Below, in pieces: positions 2,436-9,581 of a stretch of 10,593 nucleotides of DNA. The position numbers and the translations under genes are program-made. Numbering within the stretch: the first letter of the stretch is position 1; every line of letters begins with the position of its first letter. The notes below the pieces were generated by a model. That model was not told where the DNA came from, did no database searches, and worked only from the letters and a program-made list of their open reading frames with translations. The stretch lies in the UHGV virus genome UHGV-0266384; one strand, written 5' to 3'. Source of the DNA: a virus.

Positions 2436-2583
2436 CGGGTATCACAGATATGACAAACACGAAAAAAGCGGCCCCGATATGGAGCCGTCTTTCTGAACAG
2501 ATAACCCGCTGCGCTGTTTGTGTGTGTGATCCCAAACATAAGCACGGGGATGATAGCCGCTATCAGGCTGGTGGGCAATGCAA

Positions 2584-2760
2584 TCAGTCTGGTTCAGTTC
2601 GTTGCCATAACTGCGAAGCTCTCTCCTTTGATGAGTATTCTTTAAGGTACTTCTCAAGGGCAAAAGAACACGGCGCGAATCGTTCTGATTCATGCTCTTT
2701 CTTTCTGCGTCGTCTTTTTCGTGCAGGTGATGTTTTTTCGGTTGATTCTTCGTTGGTCAT
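2584..2760 (-). CDS. Hypothetical small basic protein (58 aa), below the ORF-track length cutoff
   Basis: Hand translation of the minus strand: MTNEESTEKTSPARKRRRRKKEHESERFAPCSFALEKYLKEYSSKERASQLWQRTEPD. It is in the same frame as the RHH ORF at 2818-2997 and separated from it only by one TAA and 19 sense codons. Shine-Dalgarno is weak. Confidence 0.3.
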   Translation of the reverse strand: MTNEESTEKTSPARKRRRRKKEHESERFAPCSFALEKYLKEYSSKERASQLWQRTEPD

Positions 2761-2817
2761 TGTGTGCGCCTGTAAAGCAATGCGCCGGAGTACCTCACAC
2801 CACGGCGCTGATAGTTT

Positions 2818-2997
2818 TTATCCTTTGGGTTCTATGCCGCGTTGCTGTAATTCTTTGCGGATTATTCGCTTTATCCAGGCAGCAAGAGAATCATCGCCGT
2901 CCTGTTGTTGTGCCTTTTCCATCTTTTCCCGTAAGTCAGGATCTAAACGGAACTGGAACGGAGGATTACCACGCCTTTCGTTTTTGTGTGTTGACAC
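2818..2997 (-). CDS. Ribbon-helix-helix (Arc/CopG-like) small DNA-binding protein, 59 aa, candidate repressor of the divergent switch
   Basis: Hand translation of the minus strand from GTG (SD GAGGTG 8 nt upstream): MSTHKNERRGNPPFQFRLDPDLREKMEKAQQQDGDDSLAAWIKRIIRKELQQRGIEPKG. The pattern of a beta-strand with alternating hydrophobics (FQFRL), then helix, then Gly-containing turn, then helix is that of Arc-family RHH proteins. Missing from the ORF track only because it is under 60 aa. Confidence 0.55.
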   Translation of the reverse strand: MSTHKNERRGNPPFQFRLDPDLREKMEKAQQQDGDDSLAAWIKRIIRKELQQRGIEPKG

Positions 2998-3046
2998 GTT
3001 AATTACACCTCATGTAATGTATTTATGTGTAATGACACATTACACA
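2991..3046 (+). promoter_or_regulatory. Early rightward promoter with operator palindromes
   Basis: Perfect -35 TTGACA (2991-2996), 16-bp spacer, -10 TGTAAT (3013-3018). A 21-bp perfect palindrome TGTGTAATG-ACA-CATTACACA (3026-3046) lies just downstream, with a third TGTAATG half-site at 3013-3019 overlapping the -10. The -35 overlaps the start codon of the minus-strand RHH ORF. Confidence 0.6.
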
Positions 3047-3126
3047 CAATCAACACAAAAAGCAAAGCCCCGCACTGTAGGAGCAGTAACGGGGCTTCTA
3101 ACCAACAACGTAAACTAGGAGCCGTT

Positions 3127-3324
3127 ATGGTTGCCGTAAATCATATACCACACCTTGTACACACACAAACGGCCTTTGTGTGGCGTTTTCTGGCACTGAG
3201 TGCCGGAGAATCTCAAATCATCCACGTAACCGCCTGGACGGAACGCGAAGCGCGTAGCCGTTGCCCGTCCGGTTGTGTTGCTGTATTCGCCGCCCGTATT
3301 CGTCAGGGGTCACATCATGCGTAA
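3127..3324 (+). CDS. Icd-like small protein (host cell-division inhibitor family), 65 aa
   Basis: Strong SD AGGAG 6 nt upstream of ATG 3127 (the track's longer 3025 start lacks an SD). Motifs FVWRFLALS ... TEREAR ... FAARIRQG resemble the P1 Icd / P4-like Icd-like family as I recall it. A paralogous C-terminus is repeated in the next gene. Confidence 0.5.
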   Translation: MVAVNHIPHLVHTQTAFVWRFLALSAGESQIIHVTAWTEREARSRCPSGCVAVFAARIRQGSHHA

Positions 3325-3781
3325 AAACCGCTTGCAAAAAATTATCACGGGGCTGTATGCTTCCCCCGTCGCCCACATGGCGACCGGGTTTGACAGCCTG
3401 AATACATCTGGCGGACAGCCGCCCACATCCGATAAGCGGTTTTTTTGTGTCCGTAAACCTACCCATACCCGCATTATGGCGGGGCGTAACGGGGGAGCCT
3501 TTGTGCTCGCTGGTTTCCAGATGACCAGTCTGTCAACCCTGTTACGTCTCGCCACCATGTTTGACAGCGTAGTAGCGAGACTCCTTAAAATTCATCTGGG
3601 AGCCTTTCACATGGCTGTATCCGCACGCCCTTATTTTGTCTGGCGCTTTATGCAGTGCCTGACAGACAGTATTGCAATATTCACCGTTACCGCTGCCACT
3701 GAGCGCGAAGCACGTGCACAGCTGCCGCACGCACATCTTATTTTTGTCGCCCGTATTCGCCAGGGGGGGAGTCATGCATAA
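3317..3781 (+). CDS. Ash-like / Icd-like protein (154 aa), or alternatively only the C-terminal 56-aa Icd-like paralog starting at ATG 3611
   Basis: ATG 3317 overlaps the previous stop (ATGCGTAA) with SD AGGGG upstream. The C-terminal 56 aa (YFVWRFMQCL ... TEREARAQ ... FVARIRQGG) are paralogous to the gene at 3127-3324 and have their own SD (GGGAG) and ATG at 3611. The N-terminal 98 codons overlap a repeat-rich, hairpin-rich region, so their coding status is uncertain. Confidence 0.45.
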   Translation: MRKNRLQKIITGLYASPVAHMATGFDSLNTSGGQPPTSDKRFFCVRKPTHTRIMAGRNGGAFVLAGFQMTSLSTLLRLATMFDSVVARLLKIHLGAFHMAVSARPYFVWRFMQCLTDSIAIFTVTAATEREARAQLPHAHLIFVARIRQGGSHA

Positions 3782-4001
3782 AATACCCTTTGATGTTCTT
3801 GTTCATTCTGAAAACGCATTAATCCGCGCAAAGGAAATGGACGCATTACTACTTAAGTTAATTGATGTGCCGGAAAGTGGCGATGAATCTGATTCAATGA
3901 TGTTTTCTGCCGTGCGTACGCTATTAACGCCTGTTATTAATGAATTAAATACAGTGATGGCAATTCACGAGAATAATAAAGCGCAGCACACCGGAGAATA
4001 A
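3774..4001 (+). CDS. Hypothetical small acidic protein (75 aa)
   Basis: ATG 3774 overlaps the previous stop (ATGCATAA) and follows a strong SD GGGGGGGAG. MHKIPFDVLVHSENALIRAKEMDALLLKLIDVPESGDESDSMMF... No family recognised. The track's longer 3672 start is unlikely. Confidence 0.55.
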   Translation: MHKIPFDVLVHSENALIRAKEMDALLLKLIDVPESGDESDSMMFSAVRTLLTPVINELNTVMAIHENNKAQHTGE

Positions 4002-4006
4002 AAAAC

Positions 4007-4306
4007 ATGAAAAATAAAAATTCTGGCGTTACTGCCAGCGGCCCCGCTCGTCCTGAATTTATGAACGGCGATATTTACCGCGATAAATATGGCGGCATGG
4101 TAACGATTAAAGGCGTGGCAGAACGGCGCATCACCTACCGTCGTGAAGGCTACGAATATGATTGCGTGATGCCTGTTTATCAGTTTCGGCGTGATTTTTC
4201 TCTGGTACAGGCAGCGCCCCGCAGTAAACCAACCAGCAGGGAGAAAGCACGCGCCAATATTCAGGAAATAAAAAAGATGCTTAACGTATTCAGGGGTAAA
4301 AAATGA
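4007..4306 (+). CDS. Hypothetical small protein (99 aa), translationally coupled to the primase; possibly DUF4222-like
   Basis: SD GGAGA upstream of ATG 4007; the stop overlaps the primase start (ATGA). The motif YRDKYGGMVTIKGV...RRITYRREGYEYDCVMPVYQFRRDF reminds me of a small prophage DUF family, but I cannot confirm it. Confidence 0.55.
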   Translation: MKNKNSGVTASGPARPEFMNGDIYRDKYGGMVTIKGVAERRITYRREGYEYDCVMPVYQFRRDFSLVQAAPRSKPTSREKARANIQEIKKMLNVFRGKK

Positions 4307-6051
4307 AACTGGCACCGAACGTAAAAAAACAGCCACGCGGAATAAAACACAAAGACACAGAGGTAATTATTTTCGCGGGTAGTGATGCCTGGTCGCACGC
4401 GAAACAATGGCAGGAGCAGGATGGCCCCGCATCCGGCGATAATGTGCCGCCTGTGTGGCTTGGGCCAAATCAGCTTGCCGAACTTGATGCACTGAAAATT
4501 GTTCCGGATGGGAAAAAGCGCGTAAGGCTGTACCAGGCCGGAGAACTGGATTTGGTGGAGACCAAAAAGATTGGTCAGAAGCTGGCGGCGGCAGATATTC
4601 AGGACGCAAATTTTTACCCCGAAGGAATGCACGTCCAGAAGTGTGAAAACTGGCGGCGCTATCTGAATGCTGAGCGTGAAAATATTGCCGCAGGGCTTAC
4701 CATGCCGGAGCAGAAAAATACGCAACTGGCACAAATGGCAGACAGTGAGCGCGCGCAGCTGCTTGCCGAGCGCTTTGATGGCGTTTGTGTGCATCCGGAA
4801 AGTGAAATCGTTCACGTATGGCGCGGCGGGGTATGGTGTCCGGTCAGCACAATGGAACTTAGCCGCGAAATGGTGGCGATCTATTCAGAGCACAGGGCCA
4901 CTTTCAGCAAGCGCGTAATCAATAACGCCGTGGAGGCGTTAAAAGTTATTGCCGAACCAATGGGCGAGCCGTCCGGCGATTTGCTGCCGTTCGCCAATGG
5001 TGCGCTTGACCTGAAAACGGGGGAATTTTCCCCGCACACGCCGGAGAACTGGATCACCACGCACAACGGCATTGAGTACACGCCACCAGCACCAGGGGAG
5101 AATATCTGCGACAACGCGCCAAACTTTCATAAATGGCTTGAGCACGCAGCCGGAAAAGACCCGCGCAAGATGATGCGTATATGTGCCGCGCTGTACATGA
5201 TTATGGCGAACCGGTACGACTGGCAGATGTTTATTGAGGCCACCGGAGACGGCGGGAGCGGCAAAAGTACATTCACCCACATCGCCAGCCTTTTAGCGGG
5301 GAAACAAAACACGGTAAGCGCGGAAATGACATCGCTTGATGATGCTGGTGGGCGTGCGCAGGTTGTCGGGAGTCGTCTTATCGTCCTGGCAGACCAGCCG
5401 AAATATACAGGCGAAGGCACGGGCATCAAGAAAATCACGGGCGGCGACCCCGTGGAAATCAACCCGAAATATGAAAAGCGTTTCACTACGGTAATCAGGG
5501 CGGTGGTGCTGGCGACCAATAACAACCCGATGATATTCACCGAACGGGCCGGAGGCGTGTCACGTCGTCGGGTTATTTTCCGCTTCGACAATATCGTAAG
5601 CGAGGCAGAAAAAGACAGGGAGCTACCGGAAAAGATCGCGGCTGAAATCCCTGTCATTATCCGCCGCTTGCTGGCGAACTTTACCGACCCTGAGAAGGCA
5701 CGGGCTTTACTACTGGAACAGCGTGACGGTGATGAAGCTCTGGCAATAAAGCAACAGACGGATCCGGTTATTGAGTTTTGCCAGTTCCTGAATTTTCTGG
5801 AGGAAGCACGCGGCCTGATGATGGGCGGCGGTGGCGATTCAGTGAAGTACACAACCAGAAACAGCCTTTACCGCGTCTATCTGGCGTTTATGGCATACGC
5901 AGGCAGGAGCAAACCGCTAAACGTGGCTGAGTTCAGCAAGGCCATGAAGCCAGCGGCAAAAGTTTACGGACATGAATATATTACGCGGAGAGTTAAGGGA
6001 GTAACGCAGACCAACGCAATTACAACTGATGATTGTGACGCGTTTTTATAA
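4303..6051 (+). CDS. Primase-helicase, P4 alpha / D5-like SF3 helicase (the PICI pri-rep equivalent)
   Basis: 582 aa. SF3 helicase motifs are present: Walker A GDGGSGKST (about nt 5245-5271), motif B RLIVLAD, motif C VVLATNNNP. It is immediately followed by an iteron array, as expected for a replication initiator. Confidence 0.85.
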   Translation: MKLAPNVKKQPRGIKHKDTEVIIFAGSDAWSHAKQWQEQDGPASGDNVPPVWLGPNQLAELDALKIVPDGKKRVRLYQAGELDLVETKKIGQKLAAADIQDANFYPEGMHVQKCENWRRYLNAERENIAAGLTMPEQKNTQLAQMADSERAQLLAERFDGVCVHPESEIVHVWRGGVWCPVSTMELSREMVAIYSEHRATFSKRVINNAVEALKVIAEPMGEPSGDLLPFANGALDLKTGEFSPHTPENWITTHNGIEYTPPAPGENICDNAPNFHKWLEHAAGKDPRKMMRICAALYMIMANRYDWQMFIEATGDGGSGKSTFTHIASLLAGKQNTVSAEMTSLDDAGGRAQVVGSRLIVLADQPKYTGEGTGIKKITGGDPVEINPKYEKRFTTVIRAVVLATNNNPMIFTERAGGVSRRRVIFRFDNIVSEAEKDRELPEKIAAEIPVIIRRLLANFTDPEKARALLLEQRDGDEALAIKQQTDPVIEFCQFLNFLEEARGLMMGGGGDSVKYTTRNSLYRVYLAFMAYAGRSKPLNVAEFSKAMKPAAKVYGHEYITRRVKGVTQTNAITTDDCDAFL

Positions 6052-6337: not shown

Positions 6338-6616
6338 ATGCACACATCAGGAAGATTTAACAAATCACTCAAAAAACGCAAAGACAGAACAGCACCAAGA
6401 TATAAAGCGCTGGAGATGACAGAGCACGCCTTAAAGGTGGCTATAAAGGTGATAGACATCACAGCGGGAGAAGGATACTCGAAAGCACATCCCGAACTAA
6501 TAAGCGCATTCATGACCACGGCGGCGGCAAACTTTGCCACGCTGACAGAGCGGGAGATTGCAGAAGCGGAACAGGTAACAACCATCAACGTTAAAACCGG
6601 AGAGCAGACAGCATGA
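6338..6616 (+). CDS. Hypothetical protein (92 aa), translationally coupled to ssb
   Basis: The ORF's stop overlaps the ssb start (ATGA). No family recognised and the start codon is uncertain (weak SD). Confidence 0.45.
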   Translation: MHTSGRFNKSLKKRKDRTAPRYKALEMTEHALKVAIKVIDITAGEGYSKAHPELISAFMTTAAANFATLTEREIAEAEQVTTINVKTGEQTA

Positions 6617-7023
6617 CAGCACAGATAGCGGCTTACGGGCGGCTGGTGGACGACCCGCAGGTAAAACAGACCAGCAAGGGCACACCAATGACGCTGGCAC
6701 GTATGGCGGTATCGTTGCCATGTAGTCAGGCGCAGGATGGGCAGGCTACGTTATGGCTATCGGTGATGGCATTTGGTAAGCAGGCCGACTTCCTGGCTAA
6801 ACATCAAAAAGGCGACGTTGCCAGCGTATCCGGCACGATGCAGGTCAGCCAGTGGACCGGACAGAACGGGGAAACGCGGCAGGGTTATCAGGTTATTGCA
6901 GACAGCGTAATCAGTGCCCGTGCGGCACGTCCTGGCGGGAACAGACGCAAAACCACAGGCACACAGGGTAATCAGCCACCAGCGGGAGGCGATGACCCTT
7001 ACGGTGATGATATTCCGTTCTGA
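6613..7023 (+). CDS. ssb: Single-stranded DNA-binding protein (phage-type SSB)
   Basis: 136 aa with an OB-fold-like N-terminal region and a Gly/Pro-rich tail ending in the hallmark acidic C-terminus ...DDPYGDDIPF (E. coli SSB ends ...DFDDDIPF). Confidence 0.8.
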   Translation: MTAQIAAYGRLVDDPQVKQTSKGTPMTLARMAVSLPCSQAQDGQATLWLSVMAFGKQADFLAKHQKGDVASVSGTMQVSQWTGQNGETRQGYQVIADSVISARAARPGGNRRKTTGTQGNQPPAGGDDPYGDDIPF

Positions 7024-7033
7024 GGGGGTGAGG

Positions 7034-7306
7034 ATGGTACATGACCGCATAGCGGAGGAACTCGAGGCAAAAGGCTTTTACCGGAGGGCGGCGGCACGAT
7101 GGGGTGAAGTCATGCAGCTGGTGGAGACAGACAAGGAACGGCATCAGGTTACGATGCGACGGCTGGAATGTTCCAGGAAGGCACAGAGGCCACCGGAGCC
7201 GCCGGATAACTTCGGAGACCTGAGAAAGGCAGTCGATCGCACTTATGCTGAAATGGGTATAGATGGTGTAAGCGATGAAATATGGCGTAATTACCCAGGC
7301 AGCTAA
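7034..7306 (+). CDS. PerC/Pch-family-like transcriptional regulator (90 aa)
   Basis: ATG 7034 with SD GGGGGTGAGG (the track's 6914 start would overlap ssb). The N-terminal motif RIAEELEAKGFYRRAAARWGEVM resembles the PerC family signature as I recall it. Followed by two terminators. Confidence 0.45.
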   Translation: MVHDRIAEELEAKGFYRRAAARWGEVMQLVETDKERHQVTMRRLECSRKAQRPPEPPDNFGDLRKAVDRTYAEMGIDGVSDEIWRNYPGS

Positions 7307-7546: not shown

Positions 7547-7753
7547 ATGGCTGAAGAGAAAAAAGGCGGTGTTTCGGTGTACATAAGCCCCGACATCGTG
7601 AAGGCGCTCAAGGAACGCCACCAGCAGAACGTAAAAGCAGGCATTGCGGCAGGACTTGATCCGCTGGCGATGGTTGAGCCGTCAACAGGCTGGCAGGTAC
7701 GCGCCTATTTACGCGCGGCGCTGGGTATGAATCAGGTTCACGGGGGTGAATAA
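7547..7753 (+). CDS. Hypothetical small protein (68 aa), first gene of the capsid operon
   Basis: SD AGAGGA 9 nt upstream of the ATG; the stop overlaps the major capsid start by 1 nt (TAATG). No family recognised; position suggests a scaffold or assembly role. Confidence 0.55.
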   Translation: MAEEKKGGVSVYISPDIVKALKERHQQNVKAGIAAGLDPLAMVEPSTGWQVRAYLRAALGMNQVHGGE

Positions 7754-8808
7754 TGACAGTAAAAGCAATATCACTTAACACTAACCAGCTTTTTGCGTAC
7801 CTGAATCGCGAGGATATTGCGGAATTTAAATTCAGTCCGCTGTTTACCGCGCTGTTTTTCCCGAACGTGGCGACATTCAACACACAGGACATCATGTTAG
7901 ATAACCTGGATATTGAAGAAGTCACTATGTCGGCGTTTTGTTCGCCTATGGTGGGTAGCCAGGTTCAGCGCGATAAAGGGTACGAAACAAGCATTATTCG
8001 CCCTGGCTACATGAAGCCAAAACACGAAATCGATCCATTAAAAACAATAATGCGCATGGCTGGAGAAGATCCAGCACAGCTTAACGACCCTACCTACCGC
8101 CGTATGCGCCTGATTACTGGCAACATGCGCCGCCAGATAAACGCCATTAAAGCGCGCGTGGAATGGCTGGCGGTAAATGCGGTAACGACCGGAAAAAACA
8201 TCATTGAGGGCGAAGGCATAGAGCGCTATGAAATCGACTGGAAGATACCGGAAAAAAACATCATAGAGCAGGCCGACGGTAAAAAATGGTCAGAGCAGGA
8301 CAAAGACATACACGACCCAATCTATGACATTGAGCTATACGCAGATCAGGCAGGTTGCCCCGCAAACGTCATGATTATGGGCGTTGATGTATGGCGCATG
8401 TTACGCAGCTTTAAAAAATTCCGTGAACTGTACGATCTCTCCCGTGGTTCAGAATCCGCCGCAGAGCTGGCATGTAAAAACCTGGGAGAAGTGGTGAGCT
8501 TTAAAGGCTATCTTGGTGATCTGGCCCTTATCGTCTATTCCGGCAAATACACTGACAGCGACGGCACAGAAAAATATTTCCTTGAGCCTGATTTGCTGGT
8601 CCTGGGCAACACCAACAATAAAGGGCTGGTGGCCTATGGTGCGATTATGGAACAGGAAGCGGTAAGAACGGGCGCAACGCAAAACATGTTTTACCCGAAA
8701 AACTGGATTGAAGACGGCGATCCGGCGATTGAGTACGTGCAGACACACAGCGCACCGCAGCCTGTTCCGGCAGATATTCGCAAATTTGTTACCGTCAAAA
8801 TTGGTTAA
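7753..8808 (+). CDS. Major capsid protein, lambda gpE family
   Basis: 351 aa with multiple blocks matching lambda gpE from memory: EFKFSPLF (KFKFDPLF), RPGYMKPKHEIDP (TPGYVKPKHEVNP), DPTYRRMRLITGNMR (DPAYRRRRIIMQNMR), LGDLALIVYSGKY (YGDVAIVVYSGQY), YPKNWIEDGDPAIEY (YPKNWVTTGDPAREF), C-terminal KFVTVKIG (EFVSVQLA). Confidence 0.88.
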   Translation: MTVKAISLNTNQLFAYLNREDIAEFKFSPLFTALFFPNVATFNTQDIMLDNLDIEEVTMSAFCSPMVGSQVQRDKGYETSIIRPGYMKPKHEIDPLKTIMRMAGEDPAQLNDPTYRRMRLITGNMRRQINAIKARVEWLAVNAVTTGKNIIEGEGIERYEIDWKIPEKNIIEQADGKKWSEQDKDIHDPIYDIELYADQAGCPANVMIMGVDVWRMLRSFKKFRELYDLSRGSESAAELACKNLGEVVSFKGYLGDLALIVYSGKYTDSDGTEKYFLEPDLLVLGNTNNKGLVAYGAIMEQEAVRTGATQNMFYPKNWIEDGDPAIEYVQTHSAPQPVPADIRKFVTVKIG

Positions 8809-8819
8809 CGGTGGATTCT

Positions 8820-9155
8820 ATGAACACTCCATACATTGAGTTATTTGCAGGCAGTCAGCAGGTATCAACGACGCTGGTACATTTTGCCGCTGATGCTGGC
8901 GTTATTCAGGAATTTACCCCGCTGATGCTGGCGGACAATGGCGAGTTTAAGCCGTGGGATGGTCAGGAATCTGGCAAGGCTGTTTATCTGACCTCGTACC
9001 CCGTTGACACGTCGACGCAGAAATCAGCACAGTGCTATAAGACGGGGATATTCAATATCGCCGCCGTTAACTGGCCTGAGAGCGTCGACACCGATGCGAA
9101 AAAATGCGCCGCCTTTGCGGGTTCTGGCGTATCCGTTCAGCCGCTGGCCCGATAA
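8820..9155 (+). CDS. Head decoration protein, lambda gpD family
   Basis: 111 aa from ATG 8820 (the track's GTG 8811 is in the same frame). TPLMLADNGEFKPWDG matches lambda gpD TPLMLDTSSRKLVAWDG; YKTGIF...WPE...DAKKCAAFAGSGVSV matches gpD YKSGTF...WPE...ETKKRTAFAGTAISIV. Confidence 0.75.
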   Translation: MNTPYIELFAGSQQVSTTLVHFAADAGVIQEFTPLMLADNGEFKPWDGQESGKAVYLTSYPVDTSTQKSAQCYKTGIFNIAAVNWPESVDTDAKKCAAFAGSGVSVQPLAR

Positions 9156-9167
9156 GCAGGGGGAACG

Positions 9168-9581
9168 ATGGCAACGAATGAAAGCATCATGGCGCTACCG
9201 CTGGCGAGTAAATTTAAAGCCGAAGCGCGGGCAATGGCTGACAGAGGGTTATCAACCTACGAGGCCGTATATCAACTCAACAAACTGGAAGAACAGGACA
9301 AGCCGCGCGCTGATGCGATTATGGCGCTTCATGAACATAACGACTATCAGCCGCTGTTACGTGCAATGGCAAACGTGCCATGTATTAGCGTCGATAATGC
9401 TCGTGAAATCCTGAACATGACCATAGAGCAGGAGCGCCCAAAGGTTGCACCAGAGCTTACCGCAGCCTTTGAAAACTTTATGGACATGCACAGCCCGCAA
9501 GCCGTATCAGCTGGCATGGCATACGATGGCAGAAACCAGGGCGATGACGGCGACATCGATCACATACTGAAAACCATCTGA
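9168..9581 (+). CDS. Hypothetical protein (137 aa), last gene before cos; possibly packaging- or head-related
   Basis: Strong SD GGGGGA upstream of the ATG; followed by a strong terminator. No family recognised and no clear match to lambda FI or FII. Confidence 0.6.
   Translation: MATNESIMALPLASKFKAEARAMADRGLSTYEAVYQLNKLEEQDKPRADAIMALHEHNDYQPLLRAMANVPCISVDNAREILNMTIEQERPKVAPELTAAFENFMDMHSPQAVSAGMAYDGRNQGDDGDIDHILKTI

Follow-up and report, generated by a model that had tools for sequence, protein, structure and literature searches.

The closest described relatives of the locus analyzed here are the immI region of phage P1, the cI-kil-eta region of the satellite P4 and the IsrK/orf45/anrP region of Salmonella Gifsy-1. 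The locus lies at positions 3127–3781 of a 10,593-nucleotide stretch of the virus genome UHGV-0266384 (this whole stretch is called "the window" below), where two open reading frames (ORFs) for Icd-like proteins stand on either side of a gene for a C4-type antisense RNA. The annotated order of elements in P1 immI is P51a/b, a1, b1, c4, a2, b2, icd and ant1, with b2 at the icd ribosome binding site (RBS) and the icd stop codon overlapping the next start codon as ATGA; in order, in target position and in having such an overlap the window is the same. The P1 record describes icd as "apparently required for expression of ant" and annotates Icd as a cell division inhibitor, which is also the name of NF033153, the protein family discussed below. 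The specificity of the P1 C4 RNA is reportedly set by its a' and b' sequences, and these are said to explain the P1/P7 heteroimmunity studied by Citron and Schuster in 1990.

In P4, according to the passages of PMC10111431 that treat it (citing Forti et al. 1999 and Sabbattini et al. 1995), the RNA made from a constitutive promoter inside eta ends early through interactions between CI and seqA and yields the CI RNA; CI acts at seqA and seqB, and Kil is translated on read-through only. The same passages state that only the upstream promoter gives full-length Eta, by translation that is coupled to the gene before it, that Eta translation prevents termination, and that Kil has a cell-killing function (PMC10111431). 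In Gifsy-1 the ORF that follows the IsrK terminator (orf45) is translated, its stop and the following gene overlap (AUGA), the coupled anrP depends on its translation, and its nucleotide sequence is conserved while its amino acid sequence is not (PMC4825925). Finally, the Rfam C4 and isrK profiles are reported to match several phage-inducible chromosomal islands (PICIs) of the GN-PICI (Gram-negative) and HE-PICI (helper-embedded) groups, inside eta-like "Bro zone" genes for which an immunity function is proposed, and PICIs that carry their own capsid gene, as the present island does, are described in the same passages (PMC10111431, published in 2023).

Our analysis indicates that the region of the window is probably an antisense-RNA immunity switch of the P1 immI and P4 cI-kil-eta type, which lies between two Icd-like (Kil-like) frames and guards the replication genes of a satellite. 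From left to right its elements are a promoter-like site, Icd-1, an overlapping ATG, a1/b1, a U-run terminator (about 3434–3446), C4, a2/b2, Icd-2, a second overlapping ATG, a 75-amino-acid (aa) ORF, a DUF4222 gene and a primase gene, all on the plus strand. Icd-like ORF 1 (Icd-1, 3127..3324, 65 aa) follows a Shine-Dalgarno (SD) sequence AGGAG at 3117–3121, and Icd-like ORF 2 (Icd-2, 3611..3781, 56 aa), the first ORF 3' of C4, follows the SD GGGAG at 3598–3602. Their products match the NCBIfam family NF033153 ("host cell division inhibitor Icd-like protein") with 64.7 bits (E 6e-18) and 53.7 bits (E 2e-14), respectively, against a curated cut-off of 25 bits, which bears out the Icd-like family membership that the earlier note had suggested from the letters and left to a profile search. 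The two share 48% identity (Icd-1 shares 39% with P1 Icd), both end in ARIRQG (...FAARIRQGSHHA in Icd-1 and ...FVARIRQGGSHA in Icd-2), and the motifs FxWRF and ATE.EAR are common to all Icd copies compared. At the DNA level a repeat search finds two blocks, D1 (3286–3333 and 3743–3790, 48 nucleotides (nt), 75% identity, spacing 457) and D2 (3216–3255 and 3676–3715, 40 nt, 70% identity); similarity is limited to the Icd coding part and its junction, and the repeated C-terminal block and junction lie where the earlier note had placed them. A chance origin of the repeat is ruled out by the family scores of both products. The two copies are not adjacent genes, however, since the 290 nt between them hold the C4 antisense RNA gene and its targets, and the second copy can be read in two ways, as a 56-aa ORF from the ATG at 3611 or as the last part of a 154-aa ORF with its start at the first junction.

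The C4 gene occupies 3472..3559 (RF01695, 72.6 bits against a gathering score of 45, E 5e-13), and by this match it is a homologue of the P1 C4 and P4 CI RNAs. Its computed fold has a minimum free energy of -47 kcal/mol (z = -6.5). The loop of hairpin 2 carries b' (CCAGATGA, 3517–3524) and the single strand that follows carries a' (CTGTCAAC, 3530–3537). Upstream of C4 lies a c4-a1b1 element, the analogue of P4 seqA (3355..3404; RF03163, 46.8 bits against a gathering score of 46.7), with a1 (GTTTGACAG, 3388–3396) complementary to C4 3530–3537 and b1 (ACATCTGG, 3404–3411, just past the Rfam match) complementary to C4 3517–3524. Downstream, a2 (3559–3567) has the same letters as a1 (GTTTGACAG), and b2 (TCATCTGG, 3592–3599) is complementary to the b' loop and overlaps the Icd-2 SD; direct and inverted repeats D6, D12, I11 and I14 mark this a2/b2 site. 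The predicted b'-b2 duplex has 13 pairs and -22 kcal/mol, the SD included. There is no recognisable C4 target before Icd-1, and the predicted duplexes of C4 with its RBS or leader are weak (-9 to -10 kcal/mol); targeting of the Icd-1 RBS or leader by C4 in this window was rejected on these values. Processing of RNase P type to a stable RNA of about 77–80 nt that represses in trans is a trait of the class and is predicted, by analogy, for the window C4 as well.

Conservation among relatives follows the rules of this RNA. A covariance model built from five C4 copies found 18 C4 genes in 87 loci, and among 11 distinct sequences 9 of the 28 helix pairs are changed on both sides, with 99.7% of cells paired; none of 500 shuffles reaches the observed values and slid controls are 39–44% paired, figures that are to be read with an alignment that was fitted to the model. 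The loops and their targets change as well. In an alignment of 15 distinct modules, changes in the b' loop are matched in b1 and b2, with seven types in perfect co-variation, and a', a1 and a2 likewise vary as a set, with three types; a and b types combine freely, and the specificity combinations seen span at least 7 x 3 a'/b' types. The loop of the window, CCAGATGA, goes with the target CATCTGG, and the other loops are CTACAGTG (target ACTGTAG), CTGTAGTG (ACTACAG), CTTGATTG (AATCAAG), CCAATTTG (AAATTGG), CACTAACG (in P1, GTTAGTG) and CTTCAGTG (in a divergent cassette that we call module A, ACTGAAG or ACTGAGG). Because loop and targets vary in step, both target pairs, the upstream and the downstream one, appear to be under selection to match C4, and by these patterns C4 specificity diversifies in satellites as it does between P1 and P7.

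The long ORF at 3317..3781 (154 codons) runs from the first junction across a1/b1, the terminator, C4 and a2/b2 and continues in frame into Icd-2. Annotation by the PGAP pipeline and RefSeq treats its equivalent as one 154-aa "Icd-like protein" (153–154 aa in two relatives, L001 and L002), with no RNA gene annotated. The frame is free of stops over 3317–3610, where the other two frames have 4 and 7, and of 16 satellite modules 15 keep it open, the divergent module A among them; in two loci (L008 and L038) the reading frame changes internally over about 37 codons without a stop arising, and the RNA elements are intact. Residues 1–98 have no protein family match. In another relative with the same arrangement as the window (L007, about 2773–2808) the terminator has T6 instead of T7 and the frame ends after 68 codons; the bypass ORF may truly have been lost, or the homopolymer may have been misread in sequencing. 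The translated isrK/terminator/C4 stretch of module A is matched by Pfam PF10554 Phage_ASH ("Ash protein family"; PGAP "ash family protein") at residues 40–122 of the L001 ORF (4178–4546) and residues 62–152 of protein P0045, and the family also matches P0058, P0062, P0066 and P0072; the translation of the window module (module B) has no PF10554 match. PF10554 may reflect largely a conserved RNA gene, or the Eta mid-region, and not a protein domain.

The first part of this ORF overlaps a short-RNA/terminator domain at 3323..3446. Its closing stem, AAAAACCGCTT (3323–3333) with AAGCGGTTTTT (3434–3444), is the inverted repeat I10 (11 of 11 pairs), encloses the a1/b1 hairpins and ends in a run of seven Ts at 3440–3446; it is present in the fold computed for 3320–3447 (-47.5 kcal/mol). 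The homologous elements of L001 module A and P4 pass the isrK (RF01394) gathering score of 50, with 61.8 and 60.8 bits, respectively; the window element would be IsrK/seqA-like in working but is not a filed IsrK member. Within this domain lies a candidate internal constitutive promoter, the analogue of P4 PLE and P1 P51b (3332..3361; TTGCAA at 3332–3337, an 18-nt spacer and TATGCT at 3356–3361). It aligns with the annotated P1 promoter P1c4/P51b (TTGACC-17-TATAGT), and module A (TTGATC-18-TATGAT) and P4 (TTGCCT-18-TATAGT) have hexamers at the corresponding position. The predicted start of its transcript, at about 3368, is 3' of the start codon of the long ORF, and the isrK match in the window also begins at 3368.

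Comparison with the described systems assigns a counterpart to each of these parts. The window DNA from b1 through c4 to a2 is 78% identical to P1 immI. On the other hand, in P1 no ORF crosses c4 and no Icd-like gene precedes a1/b1, the P1 Icd has a 16-aa C-terminal extension, and the P1 C4 gates an antirepressor, whereas the window cassette would gate a small ORF and satellite replication genes. In P4 the Rfam c4-a1b1, isrK and C4 elements (the last being the CI RNA, 74.9 bits) lie in the same order at 8705–8420 on the minus strand. The obsolete P4 "cI protein" ORF ends in an Icd-like domain that scores 73.9 bits on NF033153, and this domain is Kil (65 aa, ATG at 8365 behind AGGAGG); the kil frame extends upstream to three ATGs (199, 198 and 197 codons) that overlap the vis TGA, and this longer frame is Eta. 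As in the window, then, a long ORF starts upstream of the RNA elements at ATGs placed over the preceding gene's stop, kil and epsilon overlap likewise at stop and start (GTGCGTAA), and a satellite's primase operon is gated by the switch; the N-terminus of Eta, MMMPALQKL (PALQKL), also resembles that of the window ORF, MRKNRLQKI (NRLQKI). From position, frame and profile scores, the ORF at 3317–3781 is the eta analogue (we call it eta-like), Icd-2 is the analogue of kil and of P1 icd, and P4 Kil and P1 Icd are members of one protein family. The differences from P4 are that the eta start is coupled there to vis (an alpA homologue) and in the window to a second complete Icd/Kil-like ORF, that Eta has 197–199 aa against 154, that the downstream coupled gene is epsilon and not an unrelated 75-aa ORF, that P4 has sid, delta and psu where the window island has capsid genes, and that P4 aligns poorly with the window beyond a1/b1, the RNA part of the window being closer to P1. 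Gifsy-1 shares a short terminated RNA with a1/b1-like hairpins, and read-through there yields an ORF over a processed RNA of about 80 nt (PMC4825925); it differs in that the end of orf45 has no Icd-like domain (according to PMC4825925), in that the isrK match of the window is sub-threshold (35.2 against 50 bits), and in that its short RNA is reported to activate in trans (PMC4825925).

By analogy with P1 and P4, these elements, whose order, complementarity and covariation are as described above, may work as follows. A weak constitutive internal promoter (about 3332–3361) would give transcripts that start after the eta-like start codon, and these would end at the terminator, giving a short IsrK-like RNA, or continue past it and be processed into stable C4. 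C4 would pair with a2/b2 and block ribosome entry at Icd-2; with no translation of Icd-2 and its coupled ORF, transcription would terminate prematurely and the 75-aa ORF, the DUF4222 gene and the primase gene would be off, which would constitute the immune state. When the upstream promoter (2991–3018) fires, Icd-1 would be translated and ribosomes would re-initiate at the ATG at 3317; eta-like translation through the targets, the terminator and C4 into Icd-2 would then render these transcripts insensitive both to C4 and to termination. The immunity would in this way be bypassed, the 75-aa ORF, DUF4222 and primase genes would be expressed, and replication would be switched on.

The stop/start junctions on which the bypass would depend are well conserved. 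Junction 1 (ATGCGTAA, 3317–3324, with GGGG at 3306–3309 before it) places the eta-like start over the Icd-1 stop, and junction 2 (ATGCATAA, 3774–3781) places the start of the 75-aa ORF over the Icd-2 stop. At both the ATG of the next ORF begins 5 nt before the stop and is preceded by CAGGGG or CAGGGGGGGAG, and the codons CGT CAG GGG of the conserved C-terminal RIRQG double as the SD of the next gene. Every relative with one or two C4 cassettes has the overlapping ATG (ATGCGTAA at 14 junctions, ATGAGTAA at one), and in a wider survey the next ATG overlaps the stop (at -1, -5 or -8) in about 98 of 102 Icd-like ORFs, so the overlapping junctions behind a G-rich SD to which the earlier note drew attention are genuine and typical of the family. 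The downstream partner varies among islands, with genes of at least eight unrelated kinds following these overlaps, and retention of the overlap before unrelated genes argues for a role in coupling. Together with the selection on Icd-1 orthologues (below) and the arrangements in P1, P4 and Gifsy-1 orf45/anrP, the junctions suggest that the function common to the Icd-like family is that of a translated leader for coupling, and by analogy the Icd-like ORFs may act mainly in this way; division inhibition or toxicity may be a second function of their products.

The Icd-like family itself gives few other clues. It is small (273 cluster representatives in an exhaustive representative search); a word-indexed protein search with the Icd-like protein returned E. 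coli near-relatives alone, and tblastn of Icd-1 against phage records found one record only, so that membership of the P1 and P4 proteins is shown by profiles and annotation instead. An AlphaFold model of Icd-1 (beta-beta-alpha-beta) has a low pLDDT of 66, and a Foldseek search with it against the PDB gave nothing below E 0.3; with low confidence and no significant PDB neighbour, the model is uninformative on function. "Long" Icd-like members (200–640 aa) were considered as domain fusions and rejected, since many of them are gene-caller read-throughs with Cys/Ser-rich junk translations. The window has such a Cys/Ser-rich ORF at 2450–3118 (plus strand), antisense to the region of the Arc-like gene described below, and in relatives ORFs of this type continue in frame into Icd-1 and are called as 250–640-aa "proteins" with a C-terminal Icd-like domain (P0046, P0049, P0051, P0062 and P0066), which look like artefacts and not fusions. 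In PHROGs the Icd-like proteins fall in phrog_1743 and phrog_6196, both labelled "transcriptional repressor", and RefSeq names the P4 ORF that covers the CI RNA "transcriptional repressor, cI gene product"; these labels are probably legacies of an era when c4 and cI were thought to be protein-coding.

Related islands differ in the number of cassettes they carry. Among 80 IMG/VR loci retrieved with Icd-1 (all of which carry it), 68 have a single Icd-like gene without C4, 11 have the Icd-C4-Icd order of the window, and one (L086) has Icd-C4-Icd-C4-Icd. The Icd-C4-Icd block is present in 110 of 5,426 complete E. coli genomes (about 2%), and 1,243 complete E. coli genomes match at least part of window positions 2950–4010; a GTDB genome search, in a collection that holds one genome per species, gave one confirmed related locus. 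Icd-1 is the usual first early-operon gene of these islands, and the presence of two Icd copies is explained by the cassette carrying its own Icd/Kil copy and being placed behind the Icd-like gene that heads the operon. The E. coli island L001 is nearly identical to the window save for a 360-bp block inside Icd-1 that holds an Icd stub, isrK, a C4 of other specificity and a full Icd, and the result is two cassettes in series. This event could be either an insertion into Icd-1 or a deletion from an L001-like state, both directions being compatible with the data. Chimeric Icd proteins of both polarities are found as well (an Icd-1 N-terminus with an Icd-2 C-terminus, and the reverse), and judging from these joints the Icd copies are homology substrates of recombination for cassette gain, loss and stacking. 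The earlier note had expected the duplication to invite recombination or copy-number variation, and the three arrangements, the L001 block and the chimeras agree with this.

The stacked cassettes at L001 4178–5192 and L086 2623–3634 have different a'/b' specificities: module A has the loop CTTCAGTG and a' GGCTAA, module B has the loop CTACAGTG or CTGTAGTG, and each stacked cassette is in a continuous open frame with its Icd copy. In an island of E. coli O157 (L003, 2329–2922) PGAP annotates a 594-nt "Icd-like protein" pseudogene directly 5' of an intact Icd-like gene; no C4 was found there at E <= 0.01, and the pseudogene may be another read-through call or a decayed cassette.

Several points weigh against the immunity switch as proposed above. 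Most generally, we infer the transcription starts, the C4 processing, the termination and the coupling, and 68 of the 80 related islands work without any C4 cassette. Icd-1 lacks a C4 target, which means that its product would be made whenever the upstream promoter fires, and the model assigns to it a coupling role alone; its orthologues are under moderate purifying selection (pN/pS about 0.48), a value that does not separate "the protein matters" from "translation matters". The eta-like frame is open in 3.3% of dinucleotide shuffles and is thus only modestly unlikely by chance (p about 0.03), and it is broken in L007 (a 1-nt change in the T-run) and absent in P1. The isrK match at 3368–3446 falls short of its gathering score (35.2 against 50 bits), the local hairpin of the terminator is weak if the long-range stem is not formed, and the candidate internal promoter agrees with the consensus at only 8 of 12 positions and is absent from the output of the promoter scan.

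An alternative that we regard as unlikely builds on the earlier note: the locus would be a simple tandem duplication of two division-inhibitor genes, both transcribed from the early promoter and serving mainly to stop host division when the satellite is induced, with a gain in dosage or redundancy. Both ORFs do pass NF033153, P1 Icd is annotated as a cell division inhibitor, and P4 Kil, in the same family, has a cell-killing function according to the P4 passages of PMC10111431; Icd-1, moreover, has a good SD and no C4 target. The copies are nevertheless separated by a complete C4 cassette, so that the repeated unit is the cassette and not the gene, and relatives gain or lose the whole cassette. 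The RBS of Icd-2 is the b2 target, so the copies are not co-regulated, and the idea of a plain pair of inhibitors co-expressed from the early promoter is not supported. At the first junction ribosomes would pass into the eta-like ORF, which crosses the RNA cassette, and not into an ordinary next gene. A single Icd copy is the rule in related islands (68 of 80), the overlapping junction is kept before unrelated genes, and selection on the protein is only moderate.

It is less likely again that Icd-1 is a recombination scar with no role of its own, a hybrid left by deletion of a first C4 cassette from an L001-like state. To the left and right of the 360-bp block the window has the same sequence as L001, the block divides Icd-1 into a stub of 27 codons and a full Icd(A), the window Icd-1 equals the stub joined to the Icd(A) C-terminus, and natural Icd chimeras do occur. 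But the same full-length Icd-1 with its leader heads the operon in the 68 islands that have no C4, and its SD and overlapping junction are kept everywhere. The view implied by the annotation, in which 3317–3781 encodes one genuine 154-aa Icd-like protein with a functional N-terminal two-thirds and the RNA matches are incidental, is very improbable: the PGAP calls of 153–154 aa in L001 and L002, the frame open in 15 of 16 modules, the PF10554 match of the module A equivalent and the known translation of P4 Eta (as given in passages of PMC10111431) speak for it, but residues 1–98 lack a family match, conservation follows RNA rules (stem covariation and loop/target co-variation), L008 and L038 change frame for about 37 codons with the RNA elements intact, P1 has the RNA module without an open frame, and the equivalent Gifsy-1 orf45 is conserved in nucleotides and not in amino acids (PMC4825925).

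The antisense-RNA switch that we favor is set in an island of the PICI/P4-like satellite type, integrated at tRNA-Pro. The window contains tRNA-Pro(GGG) at 196–272, an integrase gene at 473–1732 and an AlpA-like gene at 2229–2435, and its rightward operon includes primase, SSB, PerC-like regulator and capsid genes. Upstream of Icd-1 is a promoter-like site (2991..3018, plus strand; TTGACA at 2991–2996, a 16-nt spacer and TGTAAT at 3013–3018), whose hexamers and position suggest that it serves as the early promoter; the promoter scan demands an A at the second position of the -10 hexamer, which explains why the site was not listed. It is followed by a perfect palindrome (12 of 12; 3023–3034 and 3038–3049), a candidate operator, and the stretch 2991–3049 is 100% identical in L001. 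Divergent from it (2818..2997, minus strand) is a gene for a small Arc/ribbon-helix-helix-like (YlcI/YnfO-like) regulator whose GTG start overlaps the -35 of the rightward promoter. Its product matches the Arc-like repressor family phrog_228 (E 2e-6) and scores 20 bits on NF041551 YlcI/YnfO, under the cut-off of 30; its homologue in L002 carries the YlcI/YnfO family annotation, and it is a candidate repressor of the rightward promoter. A leader hairpin lies at 3065–3097 (GCCCCG...CGGGGC), with a loop containing ACTGTAGGAGC, the b2 target of the L001-type C4 (loop CTACAGTG); the window's own C4 does not match this loop. The hairpin could be a third target for a C4 of other specificity or a remnant of a duplicated RBS (compare TAGGAGCAGTAACGG at 3078–3092 with TAGGAGCCGTTATGG at 3116–3130), and on the minus strand it is terminator-like.

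Downstream of the cassette, the coupled 75-aa ORF (3774..4001, plus strand; phrog_2196, function unknown) has no Pfam or NCBIfam family match; it is at the position of P1 ant1 and P4 epsilon and is related to neither. It is followed by the DUF4222 gene (4007–4306, plus strand; PF13973, E 2e-24) and the primase gene (4303–6051, plus strand; phrog_864 DNA primase, E 1e-170, and so annotated by PGAP in L001), and by analogy with P4 these two would be the genes under control of the RNA switch. Farther to the right are SSB (6613–7023), the PerC-like regulator (7034–7306) and, within 7753–9581, capsid genes for a major head protein (phrog_29) and a head decoration protein (phrog_49), along with a protein whose C-terminal part is like a head maturation protease. 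Without sid, delta and psu, the island resembles the capsid-gene-bearing Gram-negative PICIs described in passages of PMC10111431 more than it does P4.

The class of mechanism proposed here is already known from P1 and P4 and is not a new kind, and C4 and isrK matches in Gram-negative PICIs were published in 2023 (in passages of PMC10111431). In the literature examined, in part only for some sources, we did not find the paired arrangement of Icd-1 with an eta-like ORF, a catalogue of specificities, stacked cassettes or the placing of Kil in the Icd-like family; the PMC10111431 passages describe no paired Icd-like ORFs, coupling from Icd-1 to an eta-like ORF, loop/target specificity types or stacked cassettes, and literature searches ("Icd-like", and C4 antisense with satellites) found no paper on the paired arrangement. 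The "icd" of the PMC10111431 passages is mostly isocitrate dehydrogenase as an integration site.

The annotation of this locus as two "Icd-like proteins", the second with 154 aa, hides a C4/CI-type immunity RNA and its targets in about 2% of complete E. coli genomes. Their recognition links P1 immI, P4 cI-kil-eta and Gifsy-1 IsrK to one module of PICI-type satellites and brings P4 Kil and P1 Icd into one family whose constant feature is translational coupling. It also provides a concrete model of how a satellite may silence its primase operon and then bypass its own immunity, and the specificity types and stacked cassettes suggest that immunity groups have diversified among satellites. We put forward, as a tentative and rather doubtful extension, that the C4 cassette is a swappable "immunity-type" module of enterobacterial satellites, flanked by portable Icd/Kil and junction homology, and that cassettes of different a'/b' specificity are subject to insertion, deletion, exchange and stacking in islands that otherwise hardly differ. 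If this is true, co-resident satellites and P1/P4-like elements would fall into groups defined by incompatibility or exclusion, and the coupling of Icd-1 to the eta-like ORF would be a general bypass of any cassette that an induced island carries.

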